64,000 bases of DNA from assembly GCF_963921235.1 (NCBI RefSeq), contig NC_086107.1, forward strand, positions 109,494,001 through 109,558,000, written 5' to 3'. The notes under the pieces were generated by a model. That model saw nothing but the letters and a program-made list of their open reading frames with translations, was not told the DNA's origin and searched no databases. This DNA comes from Mobula hypostoma. Its lineage: Eukaryota. Position numbers and translations under genes: made by a program. Shown here piece after piece: positions 22,337 through 36,308 of this stretch (the first letter of the stretch is position 1; every line of letters begins with the position of its first letter).

Positions 22337-22400
22337 ATTGGCTGCATCCTACCTTACAGACACCTGCAGCCTCCCTTCCCCTGTCCCAGGTCTATAAAAG
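22337..22400 (+). promoter_or_regulatory. Core promoter of the CGRP-like gene: inverted CCAAT box (ATTGG 22337-22341) and TATA box (TATAAAAG 22393-22400)
   Basis: Canonical TATAAAAG in non-repetitive sequence, about 85 bp upstream of a strong splice donor (ACAG|gtaagg at 22483/22484). Confidence 0.75.
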
Positions 22401-22422
22401 AGCCTGGGCTACAGCTCAGGGA

Positions 22423-22483
22423 ACAGAGACTCCCAGCTCACTGAGAAATACAAGCCTTCGAGCCCCTAGAGGGACACTGACAG
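22423..22483 (+). other. Non-coding exon 1 (5'UTR) of the CGRP-like gene; start approximate
   Basis: Start inferred ~30 nt downstream of the TATA; contains no ATG; ends at consensus donor CAG|GTAAGG. CALCA and IAPP also have a non-coding first exon. Confidence 0.7.
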
Positions 22484-22529
22484 GTAAGGAGTGGCACTTC
22501 CTAACTCATACTTCCCATCCTGTCAATGG

Positions 22530-22565
22530 TGAGTGAGTGAGAGAGAGATGGTGAGATAGAATGTG

Positions 22566-22604
<39 letters not shown>

Positions 22605-22900
22605 TAGAGAGAGAGAGAGACTGAGAGAGAAAAGGGACACAGAGACACAGAAAGAGAGGCAGGCAGAATGTGAGAGAAAGAGACACACAGAGAAACAGAG
22701 AGACTGGGAGAGAAAAGAGACAGAAAGAGAGAGACAGAGGAAGAGAAAAAGACATAATTTGTGTGAGAAAGAGAGATAAAGAGATAGAGTGAGAGAGAGA
22801 GACACAAAGACAGAGAGACAGAGATAGAGAGAGAGAGAGAGAGAGGGACATGGAGGCACACGGGGAGAAAGGCAGACAAAGAGAGAGAGAAAGAGAAAAG
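22530..22900 (+). repeat. (GA)n-rich compound microsatellite at the start of intron 1
   Basis: Direct reading of GA/GACA repeats. Confidence 0.9.
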
Positions 22901-24364
22901 GTCCCTGACAAAGGGTCTCAGCCCAAAACTTTTGACTGTTTATTCATTTCCATGGATGCTGCCGGACCTGCTGAGTTCCCCTGGCATGTTATGTGCGCTG
23001 CTGAAGATTTCCAGCATCTGCAGAATCTCTTGCCTTTCCCTTATGCCCTGCCCCTCAGCTGCCGTAGACACAATGACTGCATTGTCTTCAGACTGTTCGC
23101 CTGCTGCTCCCCCTCCCCACCCCCACCCTCGTGGCGTTGCACAGGCCCTTCGCTCCAACTCACCAATGCCGACCGCGTTGTCTACCTCTACGTTAGTCCC
23201 ATTTGTCTGCGTTCAGCCCATGATCTCCTAAACCAGGGGTTCCCAACCTGGTGTCCATGGACCCCTTGCTTTAATGGCATTGGTCCATGGCTTCAAAAGT
23301 GGTTGGGAACCCCTGCTCTAAACCTCCCCGATCCACGAACCCATCTTAGCTTACTGTCTGCTACGCCGCTGGTGTTCAGGGCAGCAATAAAGGTCAGCTG
23401 AGTCTGGCAGTGTTCAGAGCTTCCTTCATTGTGTCAGAAGCTTCCTCTCGGTTTTCACTACAGTCAGTCATGCAGGGCCCGGGTCAGGAATACCGTCGCA
23501 CTCAGATGTAGAAGGATTCCTCATTGCTGTTTCCGTAACAGTTTTGTTTGACCAGTCAGGGCTGTTAGCCCCGAGCTGAGCCCCCGAACCTGGAGGACCC
23601 AGTGGACCACTCTTACTCTAGCCTTTACCCTTTGACCTATCTGACATGGGTGACCCTACCAAAAGCCAAAGCACAAAAGCCCACAACTCCAGCCAGCATA
23701 TCTCTCCGGGTCATAGAGGCATACAAGTCTCCAAACCCAACGACAAGGTTGTGGTCCTCTTGGAGGCACATATCCATCTGGATCTTATTTAAACATTGTA
23801 ATTCAAAGCTTCAAAGGTTCATTTTATTGTCAAAGTATGCATGTACAATACAACTCTGATATTTGTCTTCTCCAGATAGCCACGAAATACTGAAAGACCT
23901 TGGGAGTTGTTGAAAGAAAAGACATCAACCCCTTCCCAACATGAAAAAGAAAAGAAACAATACTCACAAACCCCAAACCCCCACCCCCTCCCCCACAGGA
24001 AAAATCAGCATCAAACTTTACCTGACCCTACTACTTCCTCCAGCAACTTGTTCCATCTATATTACCACCATCTCTGAAAACGTTGCCCCTCTATATCCCT
24101 TTTGAAATCTTCCCCCTTTCACCTTAAACCTATTTCCTCTTGCTTTAGACTTCGCTAACCTGGGAAAAAGACTGTGACCACCTGCCTAATCTACATCCCC
24201 TGAGGTTTTACAGACCTCTGTGAGGTATAGACATCACCCTTCGCTCCAGGGGAAAAAAAATCACAGCATATCAAGACTCCTCTTATAACTCAAGCCATCC
24301 ACTCCCAGTAACACCCTCATGAATCTTTCCAGCTCCACTCCTGGCTGAATTCCTTATCTGCACA

Positions 24365-34376: not shown

Positions 34377-34514
34377 ATCCCCGGGCAGCCCAAACCTGGG
34401 GAAGGTTCTCATTCGCCATGTGGACGGACGTTATTTACCAGGACTGAGGCAGAGGCAGCTGCCCCAGCCTGTGGCAGGCTACGTGCAGGATCATCATAAC
34501 CAGAGACTGAGACG
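34377..34514 (+). CDS. CGRP-like precursor, second coding exon (propeptide R-SPGSPNLGKVLIRHVDGRYLPGLRQRQLPQPVAGYVQDHHNQRLR-R)
   Basis: Acceptor atgtgtttcag|A, donor CG|gtatct (weaker). 138 nt, phase 2/2, open frame; joins both flanking exons in frame. Size is close to CALCA exon 3 (~141 nt). Confidence 0.75.
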
Positions 34515-34644
34515 GTATCTCCCATCTATCAACATCTCCCTCTCCTTCTGTTTGTCTGCACTCCTGCCTGTTTGTCACCCCTCTCTTCCTTTGCTTATCC
34601 GTCTCCTTCAGTCACGTCGCCATTTTTCCATCTGCCTTGCTCTC

Positions 34645-35462
34645 TCCCTGACTGCTCACCTGTGTCCCCTCTCTCCCTAACTGCTCACCTGTGTCCCCTC
34701 TCTCCCTGACTGCTCACCTGTGTCCCCTCTCTCCCTAACTGCTCACCTGTGTCCCCTCTCTCCCTGACTGCTCACCTGTGTCCCCCCTCTCCCTGACTGC
34801 TCACCTGTGTCCCCTCTCCCCCGGCTGCTCACCTGTGTCCCCCCTCTCCCCGACTGCTCACCTGTGTCCCCTCTCCCCCTGGCTGCTCACCTGTGTCCCC
34901 CCTCCCCCGACTGCTCACCTGTGTCCCCCTTCCCCCGGCTGCACACCTGTGTCCCCCTTCCCCCGGCTGCACACCTGTGTCCCCCCTCTCCCCCGGCTGC
35001 ACACCTGTGTCCCCCCTCTCCCCCGGCTGCACACCTGTGTCCCCCCTCTCCCCCGGAAGCTCACCTGTGTCCCCCCTCTCCCCCGGCTGCTCACCTGTGT
35101 CCCCCCTCCCCCGACTGCTCACCTGTGTCCCCCCTCCCACGGCTGCACACCTGTGTCCCCCCTCCCACGGCTGCACACCTGTGTCCCCCTCCCCCGGCTG
35201 CACACCTGTGTCCCCCCTCTCCCCCGGCTGCACACCTGTGTCCCCCCTCTCCCCCGGCAGCTCACCTGTGTCCCCCCTCTCCCCCGGCTGCTCACCTGTG
35301 TCCCCCCTCTCCCCCGGCTGCTCACCTGTGTCCCCTCACTCCCCCGACTGCTCACCTGTGTCCCCCCTCTCCCGACTGCTCACCTGTGTCCCCCCTCTCC
35401 CGGCTGCTCACCTGTGTCCCCCCTCTCCCGACTGCTCACCTGTGTCCCCTCTCTCCCTGACT
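34645..35462 (+). repeat. C-rich minisatellite, ~28-30 bp unit CTGCTCACCTGTGTCCCCCCTCTCCCCGG, roughly 28 copies
   Basis: Direct reading; produces the spurious Pro/Cys-rich ORFs at 34778-35509. Confidence 0.95.
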
Positions 35463-35659
35463 CTGTTTTAGTGTCTGTTTTCTCTTTCTGCCTGCCTGGT
35501 TCTTCCTGACTTTCATCTCTGTGTTCTTTCTCCCTCTCTGTGTCTCTCTGCCCTAACGTTTCTCTGTCTGCAACGCTGACAATATTTCTCTGCCTATGTG
35601 TGTCTCTTTGCCATAGTGTTCGACCGCCGGTTCAACTATCTGCCTGCCTGTCACATCCC

Positions 35660-36010
35660 TGATCCTTCTCTCTCACTTTCACTCTCTCTCTCCCCTTTCT
35701 CTCTCTCCTCCTCTTTCTCTCCCTTTCTCACTCCCTTTTTCTCTCTCCCCTTCCTCTCCTCCCTTTCTCTCCCCTTCCTCTCCTCTCTCTCCCCTGCCTC
35801 TCTCTCTCTCTCTCTCTTGCCCTCTCCCTCTCTCCTTCTCCCCTGCTCTTTTTCTTCCTCTCCTCTCCCATGTTTTTCTTCTCCTTCTCCACCCCGCCTC
35901 CCTCTTTCGCTCTTGCTCTCTCTGTCGCTTCTGAGAACCCGTGCCACCAGTTTTGGTTATAATTTTTTTCTCACTTTGTGCTTCTGTGTGTGTGTGTGTG
36001 TGTGTGTGTC
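35660..36010 (+). repeat. (CT)-rich polypyrimidine tract and (TG)n microsatellite upstream of the CGRP exon
   Basis: Direct reading. Confidence 0.85.
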
Positions 36011-36139
36011 TTCTTTACAGTCCATCTATCAGGCTGCATCCTCTCTCCCTGTCCCGCCACTGCCCTGATCGTCTCAGCCCGCACCCCCCATTTCAGACCA
36101 TTTTAACCCCCGCGCTCCTCTCCCCGATATCTGCTGCAG

Positions 36140-36308
36140 GCTCCTCCCGCTCCACAAGCAGAAGCGTTCCTGTAACACGGCAACGTGCGTGACCATCCGC
36201 CTGGCCAACTTCCTCAGCCGCTCCGGGGCAATGGGCAGCAGGAGCTTCATTCCCACCGACATCGGGGCGAAAGCGTTTGGGAGGAAGCGTCGCGGCCTTC
36301 CAATGTAG
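36140..36308 (+). CDS. CGRP-like precursor, mature-peptide exon: LLPLHKQKR-SCNTATCVTIRLANFLSRSGAMGSRSFIPTDIGAKAF-GRKRR-GLPM*
   Basis: Acceptor ctgctgcag|G (phase 2). KR cleavage site, C2-C7 ring (CNTATC), 37-aa peptide at 36168-36278 ending in Phe, amidation Gly plus RKRR, stop TAG 36306-36308. Clear CGRP-family layout; orthology unresolved, so no symbol given. Confidence 0.95.

Follow-up and report, generated by a model that had tools for sequence, protein, structure and literature searches.

Calcitonin gene-related peptide (CGRP) is a major vasodilator and a pain and migraine peptide, and the history of its family has been used to reconstruct the diversification of vertebrate peptide hormones. 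CALCA, the calcitonin/CGRP gene, carries its 3′ untranslated region (UTR) on an exon of its own. A 2018 review describes CALCB and the genes for calcitonin receptor-stimulating peptides (CRSP) as tandem duplicates that adjoin CALCA in tetrapods or mammals (PMC6283891). It models the family with adrenomedullin 1 (AM1) and CGRP on one proto-chromosome, AM2 and amylin on a second, and AM5, which lacks a CGRP-like partner, on a third; by its account, no CGRP gene had been reported from a cartilaginous fish and no amylin paralog from teleost fish by 2018, and the cartilaginous-fish members with their chromosomal locations needed comprehensive identification (PMC6283891). For skate, Calca alone is mentioned in the available portions of a 2024 paper on C cells (PMC11698069). 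Here we analyse a stretch of 64,000 nucleotides from Mobula hypostoma (assembly GCF_963921235.1, contig NC_086107.1, C45 below, positions 109,494,001 to 109,558,000 of the forward strand; hereafter the window), in which a second CGRP-type neuropeptide is very probably encoded by a working gene of five exons, a paralog distinct from the canonical gene and probably a product of ancient block or whole-genome duplication. Positions without a contig name are those of the window.

An initial annotation, made from the sequence, had presented this locus as a hidden and undescribed neuropeptide gene. Hidden it is not, as the precursor is identical at 129 of 129 residues to the RefSeq protein XP_062919461.1 of Mobula hypostoma ("calcitonin gene-related peptide 1-like isoform X1"); the gene was missed only by a prokaryote-style track of open reading frames (ORFs), from which it is absent because introns split it. 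The word undescribed fits the literature, in which our search turned up no account of a second CGRP gene in elasmobranchs (subscription papers and supplements lay outside the search), but not the databases, which hold RefSeq predictions in rays and sharks. The gene appears to be an old sister of CALCA, known as a database prediction and uncharacterised in the literature.

Gene structure and predicted peptide

The coding sequence lies on the forward strand in three exons (27028-27110, 34377-34514 and 36140-36308) with AG/GT borders and phase-2 joins, and its 83 + 138 + 169 = 390 nt give 129 codons and a stop without any internal stop. The stop-free precursor of 129 residues first read from the sequence is exact, in its splice borders as well as in its identity to the RefSeq model. 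Exon 2 (27022..27110, ATG at 27028, acceptor ending ttttcag, donor beginning gtgagt, followed by a phase-2 intron) has 83 coding nt, which specify the signal peptide and the first part of the propeptide, and its product is identical to the N-terminus of XP_062919461.1. Exon 3 (34377..34514, 138 nt, acceptor tttcag, donor gtatct, again followed by a phase-2 intron) continues the propeptide. Exon 4 (36140..36329, acceptor ctgcag) encodes, in this order, the end of the propeptide, Lys-Arg, the 37-residue CGRP-type peptide (36168-36278), Gly, Arg-Lys-Arg-Arg and a tail of four residues; the stop at 36306-36308 is followed by 21 nt of 3′ UTR and the donor cacag/gtagag. Exon 5, on the same strand, is a 3′ UTR exon covering at least 41285..41810 (acceptor cacag), with AATAAA at 41851 and a tail that enters a repeat. 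The gene has five exons and reaches about 5.5 kb past 36308, so that the extent first given to it was right in its coding exons but wrong in ending at the stop codon, since exon 4 runs to 36329 and the exon at 41285 had been missed.

Reading of the upstream sequence gives a presumed promoter on the forward strand, with a TATA-like box (TATAAA, 22393..22399) and an inverted CCAAT-like gattgg at 22337, where the range given in the initial annotation begins. A presumed non-coding exon 1 would lie at 22420..22483 (forward strand, 5′ end approximate), with the donor acag/gtaagg after 22483. Also, RefSeq has an isoform X2 (XP_062919463.1), whose protein sequence places an alternative first coding exon at 31793..31872 of the forward strand, within the reverse-transcriptase ORF (31721-32293; RVT_1, E 1.6e-21) of a long interspersed nuclear element (LINE). 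In this isoform the signal-peptide exon is swapped for a LINE-derived start codon and 26 residues. No RNA support for the X2 exon was seen in the contigs of the four sequencing runs described below, and the isoform, with a product devoid of signal peptide, is probably a transposon-exonisation artefact or a noise transcript.

Exon 4 matches the Pfam family PF00214 (Calc_CGRP_IAPP) with 63.3 bits (E 4.2e-17, cut-off 22.3), and in a genome-wide profile scan the window's peptide exon scored 59.5 bits on that family. Translation of 36141-36305 predicts Lys-Arg, a 37-mer with Cys2 and Cys7 and a terminal Phe, and then Gly-Arg-Lys-Arg-Arg. The length of 37 residues, the terminal Phe with its Gly amide signal and the clustering with CGRPs rather than amylins assign the peptide to the CGRP subtype, and its closest non-orthologous database matches are CGRP precursors. 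The layout of the gene is that of CALCA minus the calcitonin exon.

By what is known of the family, the signal peptide would be removed from the 129-residue precursor, prohormone convertases would cut after Lys-Arg and before Arg-Lys-Arg-Arg, a carboxypeptidase would trim the basic residues, and the exposed Gly would be converted to a C-terminal amide. With the Cys2-Cys7 ring formed, the predicted product is a 37-residue peptide with a Phe-amide. It would be expected to act as a CGRP-like agonist at the calcitonin-receptor-like receptor (CLR) with a receptor activity-modifying protein (RAMP), since the ring and the Phe/Gly amide signal are kept and the C-terminal stretch closely tracks canonical CGRPs in the alignment.

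Transcript evidence

Words of the peptide exon occur in 14 sequencing runs, none of which is recorded as RNA, so their RNA nature is a guess. Four of them were aligned to window positions 22000-41999 (X1 to X3 from one study, X4 from a second study with another organism code), and the 10 unaligned runs had mostly small word shares. Exon 4 is covered by contigs of all four runs. Contigs from three (X1 record 7, X2 record 13 and X4 record 25) bridge 34513/36139, and contigs from two (X2 record 13 and X4 record 25) bridge 36324/41280. As the letter G stands at both 34514 and 36139, the exon 3/exon 4 junction is 34514/36140 with GT..AG borders; likewise cacag occupies both 36325-36329 and 41280-41284, which sets the exon 4/exon 5 junction at 36329/41285, again GT..AG. 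Two of the contigs (X1 record 7 and X4 record 25) start aligning at 34373, with 25 and 163 upstream letters unplaced. This start lies four letters (tcag) before the acceptor of exon 3, and the same tcag ends exon 2; the unplaced letters indirectly fit a splice from exon 2 to exon 3 (27110/34377), a junction further backed by the identical RefSeq model. X2 record 13 continues instead into intron 2, to 34310.

Among the junctions that the initial annotation had singled out for a check against RNA, 34514/36140 is bridged and 27110/34377 has the indirect backing just given, but no bridge was seen for 22483/27022; no contig piece of the four runs was shown on exons 1 or 2, which counts neither way. 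The intronless contigs imply either spliced RNA or a processed copy, and the genome search found no processed copy.

Two observations concern the contigs themselves. Position 36261 is A in the assembly, where residue 32 of the peptide reads Ile, but G in the contigs of the four runs, which all encode Val32 as every other ortholog does; the discrepancy reflects either variation between individuals or a difference in the assembly. Intron 3 (1,625 bp) consists mostly of a minisatellite of 28-30 bp units and TC-rich repeats. The minisatellite (34640..35457, no strand assigned) is CT-rich, with about 28 copies at 92% matches by Tandem Repeats Finder, and fills the intron in which CALCA has its calcitonin exon; contig depth over it is nil in two of the four runs.

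Orthologs and conservation

Orthologs of the gene are annotated in nine further elasmobranch species, among them the batoids Mobula birostris, Hemitrygon akajei, Hypanus sabinus, Pristis pectinata and Narcine bancroftii and the sharks Heptranchias perlo, Scyliorhinus torazame and Chiloscyllium punctatum, and the predictions of M. birostris and H. akajei share a 90% cluster with XP_062919461.1. Their names are inconsistent, ranging over "CGRP-like", "CGRP 1-like", "CGRP 2-like", "calcitonin receptor-stimulating peptide 2-like" and "hypothetical protein". Batoids and both superorders of sharks have kept the gene. Its presence in Hexanchiformes, in two galeomorph sharks and in four batoid orders shows that it predates the batoid-shark divergence.

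For comparison we used an alignment of seven orthologs (A1; four batoids and three sharks) and one of 18 canonical precursors (A2). Against the six aligned orthologs, the mature peptide of the window gene is identical at 27/36 to 36/37 positions and the signal and pro regions at 31/68 to 64/83. Such a preference for the peptide over the pro-region is what selection on the 37-mer as the product would lead one to expect. All 18 canonical CGRPs have His as residue 10 of the peptide (36195-36197 in the window gene), as do the three sharks in their paralog; the aligned batoids instead carry Ile (Mobula, Hypanus), Phe (Pristis) or Leu (Narcine) there. This loss of His10 in batoids could alter potency or selectivity.

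Comparison with the canonical gene and other family members

The canonical calcitonin/CGRP gene of Mobula hypostoma lies on the same contig, at C45:42,750,057-42,754,064, where exons for signal, pro-region, calcitonin and CGRP are all present. It is separated from the window gene by 66.8 Mb, and the CGRP exons of the two are 64% identical. Ahead of the CGRP exon the canonical gene has 86 + 135 coding nt and the window gene 83 + 138, hence 221 nt with two phase-2 introns in both, in agreement with the initial claim that the exon phases match CALCA. The equal length and phases support the view that the gene structure as a whole was inherited from a common ancestor. The two genes share PF00214, the 37-residue peptide with its Cys2-Cys7 ring, the Phe and Gly amidation signal, and a separate 3′ UTR exon after the peptide exon, which in the window gene was observed.

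They differ in that the window gene has no calcitonin exon and in that the signal and pro regions cannot be aligned. A six-frame scan of the window for the ring motif found the CGRP exon alone, the three-frame translation of intron 3 held no calcitonin-like frame, and a tblastn search of the window with the genome's own calcitonin exon matched only the CGRP exon (E 0.13). Between chimaera and birds the canonical pro-region changes little (A2, mean column identity 79%); in the hhalign comparison of A1 with A2, however, only columns 52-129 aligned, with real similarity limited to the peptide exon, and tblastn with canonical exons 2 and 3 gave no match at the exons of the window gene. When the A1 profile was run with HMMER against 1.84 billion representative sequences, one of the 100 matches, the orthologs' own cluster (255 bits), spanned positions 1-129. 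The remaining 99 scored at most 100.6 bits and began at profile position 38 or later (about 38-92); the ten that began earliest turned out to be usual precursors of the CALCA, CALCB or CRSP type and one protein from lamprey. The suspicion, voiced at the outset, that the signal and pro regions do not resemble canonical CALCA pro-regions is borne out by all three methods. One resemblance, of ..DSDHYS.. in the propeptide to ..ESDHYA.. in the tail of the calcitonin exon, had an E of 3.9 and was judged to be chance.

A lamprey precursor (XP_032813992, Petromyzon marinus "CGRP 2-like", 147 aa) combines a CGRP-type ring with a pro-region that resembles neither elasmobranch gene's, and could help to root the family.

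The proposal of a separate paralog rather than CALCA is supported, given the missing calcitonin exon and a canonical gene elsewhere on C45; a sole CGRP locus in CALCA synteny, the situation that would have spoken for an orthodox CALCA, is not what the genome holds. Amylin-type genes, too, were found elsewhere as anticipated. Three amylin-type peptide exons stand in tandem within 165 kb on contig C66 (10833384-10833521, 10930611-10930724 and 10996276-10996404, reverse strand, by genome search), two of which end in Tyr-Gly-Lys-Arg. One is of normal length and ends ..SY followed by Gly-Lys-Arg, one is shorter, and one is divergent and ends ..SF followed by Gly-Lys-Arg. With amylin and adrenomedullin the window gene shares a common superfamily and processing logic, but the amylin-type genes form a cluster apart and the window peptide ends in Phe, not Tyr.

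The gene resembles mammalian CALCB and CRSP in being of the CGRP type and giving a CGRP-like peptide alone, as described in the 2018 review (PMC6283891). One ortholog even bears a RefSeq CRSP name ("calcitonin receptor-stimulating peptide 2-like"), although shared names are no sign of orthology. CALCB and CRSP, however, keep a CALCA-like pro-region, whereas that of the window gene is unrelated, and the window gene is no tandem neighbour of CALCA, being 67 Mb away in Mobula hypostoma and on another chromosome in five other species. It would also be a further CGRP/amylin-type member outside the 2018 model.

Gene order and a probable block duplication

A TMEM86-type gene lies 18 kb upstream of the window gene on the same strand, with its first coding exon at C45:109,487,358-109,487,816 (PF07947, E 2e-07) and its last at 3559..4074 of the window (TMEM86/YhhN, PF07947, E 1.2e-29). 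Downstream, 36-54 kb beyond the window gene, an RRAS-type GTPase gene stands tail to tail with it (C45:109,572,314-109,572,718 and 109,589,713-109,590,033). A second RRAS-type copy was found 0.55 Mb from CALCA (C45:42,200,523-42,200,639, 85%, and 42,193,329-42,193,460, 82%). The two places are a lower bound for RRAS-type exons in the genome, as one query was swamped by a repeat in its first 60 residues and 150 of its 6040 candidates were scored. The CALCA-side copy resembles human R-Ras2 along the whole exon, the Thr of FVTDY included; the window-side copy has Ser there (FVSDY). The best other TMEM86 match (C45:52.58 Mb, 35% identity) is 9.8 Mb from CALCA and 77 kb from the genome's sole SPT2-domain match.

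Further families follow the same arrangement. PPP6R-type genes occur as a pair at 36.67-36.69 and 81.42-81.50 Mb of C45, the latter 0.13 Mb from the sole Fes1 (HSPBP1-type) match. The genome-wide profile scan placed adrenomedullin-type exons at C45:37.95 and 82.92 Mb, the second of them 0.25 Mb from the sole CPT1 N-terminal match (C45:82.67 Mb). CPT1 was considered as a discriminator between adrenomedullin types and rejected, as CPT1 genes adjoin both ADM2 and ADM5 in human. Altogether five families, CGRP included, have one member in C45 36-53 Mb and one in 81-110 Mb.

In all five species other than Mobula for which both genes are listed, the paralog and CALCA are on different contigs, of 42.9 and 182.4 Mb, respectively, in Hypanus, 41.4 and 188.7 Mb in Hemitrygon, 94.9 and 494.5 Mb in Narcine, 20.3 and 76.1 Mb in Heptranchias, and 102.2 and 93.7 Mb in Chiloscyllium punctatum. 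As the simplest reading, this suggests two paralogous chromosome blocks that were joined by fusion in the Mobula lineage. An old block duplication, possibly one of the early-vertebrate genome duplications, is indicated, since an RRAS-type and a TMEM86-type gene accompany either CGRP gene and the two CGRP genes are on separate chromosomes in five species.

In human, 11p15 carries RRAS2, CALCA, TMEM86A and SPTY2D1, and 19q13 carries RRAS, ADM5, CPT1C, TMEM86B, PPP6R1 and HSPBP1. On these maps, the window gene would sit on the putative counterpart of the 19q13 paralogon.

Phylogeny and origin of the paralog

Built from 31 rows and 54 columns of the peptide exon, the maximum-likelihood tree unites the paralogs in one clade (99/96) and the canonical chondrichthyan CGRPs, chimaera included, in another (93/91). 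The three amylin-type rows form an outgroup clade (94/100), with the window gene inside the CGRP group. The tree gives no date for the split between the paralog and CALCA. In approximately unbiased (AU) tests, joining the paralog with elasmobranch CALCA cost 6.35 log-likelihood units (p 0.238), joining it with all chondrichthyan CALCA 5.29 units (p 0.027), and uniting all canonical genes with the paralog outside 0.36 units (p 0.167).

Taking gene order and sequence together, the paralog most probably arose by ancient block or whole-genome duplication rather than as a local copy, and we lean slightly towards an old origin of the 2R type (two rounds in which the whole genome doubled). Our confidence is evenly divided on a more specific version, by which the gene is a third CGRP/amylin-type ohnolog of the early-vertebrate duplications and the missing peptide partner on its paralogon. 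The paralogon, with its RRAS-type, TMEM86-type, HSPBP1, PPP6R, CPT1 and adrenomedullin-type genes, would then resemble human 19q13, the site of ADM5. On this version the gene would have been kept in elasmobranchs and lost in bony vertebrates, perhaps also in chimaeras and skates.

Several results weigh against an ancient block origin or against the gene's standing as a functional one. Scores of the window-side RRAS-type exons are higher against human R-Ras2 than against R-Ras (55.3 versus 40.7 and 61.4 versus 51.4 bits), so that their orthology to RRAS is not shown; for the TMEM86 genes, a search of the PDB gave no relatives and a search of protein clusters just generic "YhhN family" entries, neither of which separates A from B. 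The 54-column peptide tree gives its deep nodes no resolution, and a copy made within elasmobranchs is tolerated by the AU test. No ortholog from Callorhinchus, skates or bony vertebrates was seen among annotated proteins, as distinct from genomes. On the transcript side, the runs are RNA by guess, the exon 2/exon 3 junction has its indirect backing and the first junction was unseen in the contigs of the four runs; the peptide gene is known here from sequence and assembled contigs.

Part of this evidence would suit a different history, in which CALCA was copied in the ancestor of elasmobranchs or chondrichthyans, much as CALCB was, with later loss of the calcitonin exon and divergence of the pro-region. 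The tolerance of the AU test for a clade of the paralog and elasmobranch CALCA, the failure to find an ortholog outside elasmobranchs and the nearness of the adjacent RRAS-type gene to R-Ras2 all agree with such a copy, as does the identical length of coding sequence (221 nt) that precedes the peptide exon in both genes. Both elasmobranch CGRPs have Asp31 (..PTDVGA..), where Callorhinchus and 11 of 13 bony-vertebrate rows have Asn; Asp31 is, however, also found in anchovy and in one rodent row. A lineage-specific copy would have had to carry with it RRAS-type and TMEM86-type neighbours that lie 0.55 and 9.8 Mb from CALCA, and the TMEM86 copies are just 35% identical. It would also have to be reconciled with the different contigs of the two genes in five of five species, and with a canonical pro-region that holds 79% column identity across gnathostomes yet is undetectable in the window gene. 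We regard this history as unlikely, though it is the alternative to be taken most seriously.

The other two alternatives are far less probable than that. An amylin (IAPP) ortholog or amylin-like gene would account for the ring motif ..CNTATC.. and for ..RLANFL.., which would both pass as amylin-like. Three amylin-type exons are nevertheless found elsewhere in the genome, two with the ending Tyr-Gly-Lys-Arg, and their rows form a clade separate from the CGRP group that contains the window gene; moreover, the window peptide ends in Phe followed by a Gly amide donor and is encoded by a gene with three coding exons, all of which makes an amylin hardly conceivable. It is equally hard to see in the gene a decaying or untranslated copy, annotated just for its resemblance to CGRP. 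Isoform X2 does begin in a transposon ORF and the peptide is a prediction at the nucleotide level, but the frame is intact both in the window gene and in nine other species, the mature peptide is far more conserved than the pro-region, and spliced contigs were found in three of four runs.

Implications for the family

On this evidence elasmobranchs have two CGRP genes of different origin and a tandem amylin cluster, the second CGRP gene carrying a conserved 37-mer that, to judge by its sequence, is probably bioactive. Because databases already hold the gene model and the peptide is unexceptional within a known family, the finding is useful rather than surprising. If the block duplication is true, the published model needs a third CGRP/amylin-type branch, and the automatic names (CGRP 1-like, CGRP 2-like, CRSP 2-like) need replacing. 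Should the gene be the third ohnolog, the ancestral tandem pair of adrenomedullin and a CGRP-like gene survived on three paralogons, not two, and sharks and rays have a CGRP signalling peptide without a tetrapod counterpart.

Other features of the window and its flanks

Besides the peptide gene, a Pfam scan of the 146 window ORFs of at least 95 aa found just the TMEM86 exon and transposon domains. Among the 150 longest of 354 non-repeated ORFs in the flanks, we found a G-protein coupled receptor, a TMEM86 exon, a Ras exon and a CENP-B-like domain. The receptor is a single-exon gene of the rhodopsin family (360 aa, C45:109445102-109446181, reverse strand), about 41 kb upstream of the TMEM86 gene, and its best solved relative is the G-protein coupled estrogen receptor 1 (86.9 bits).

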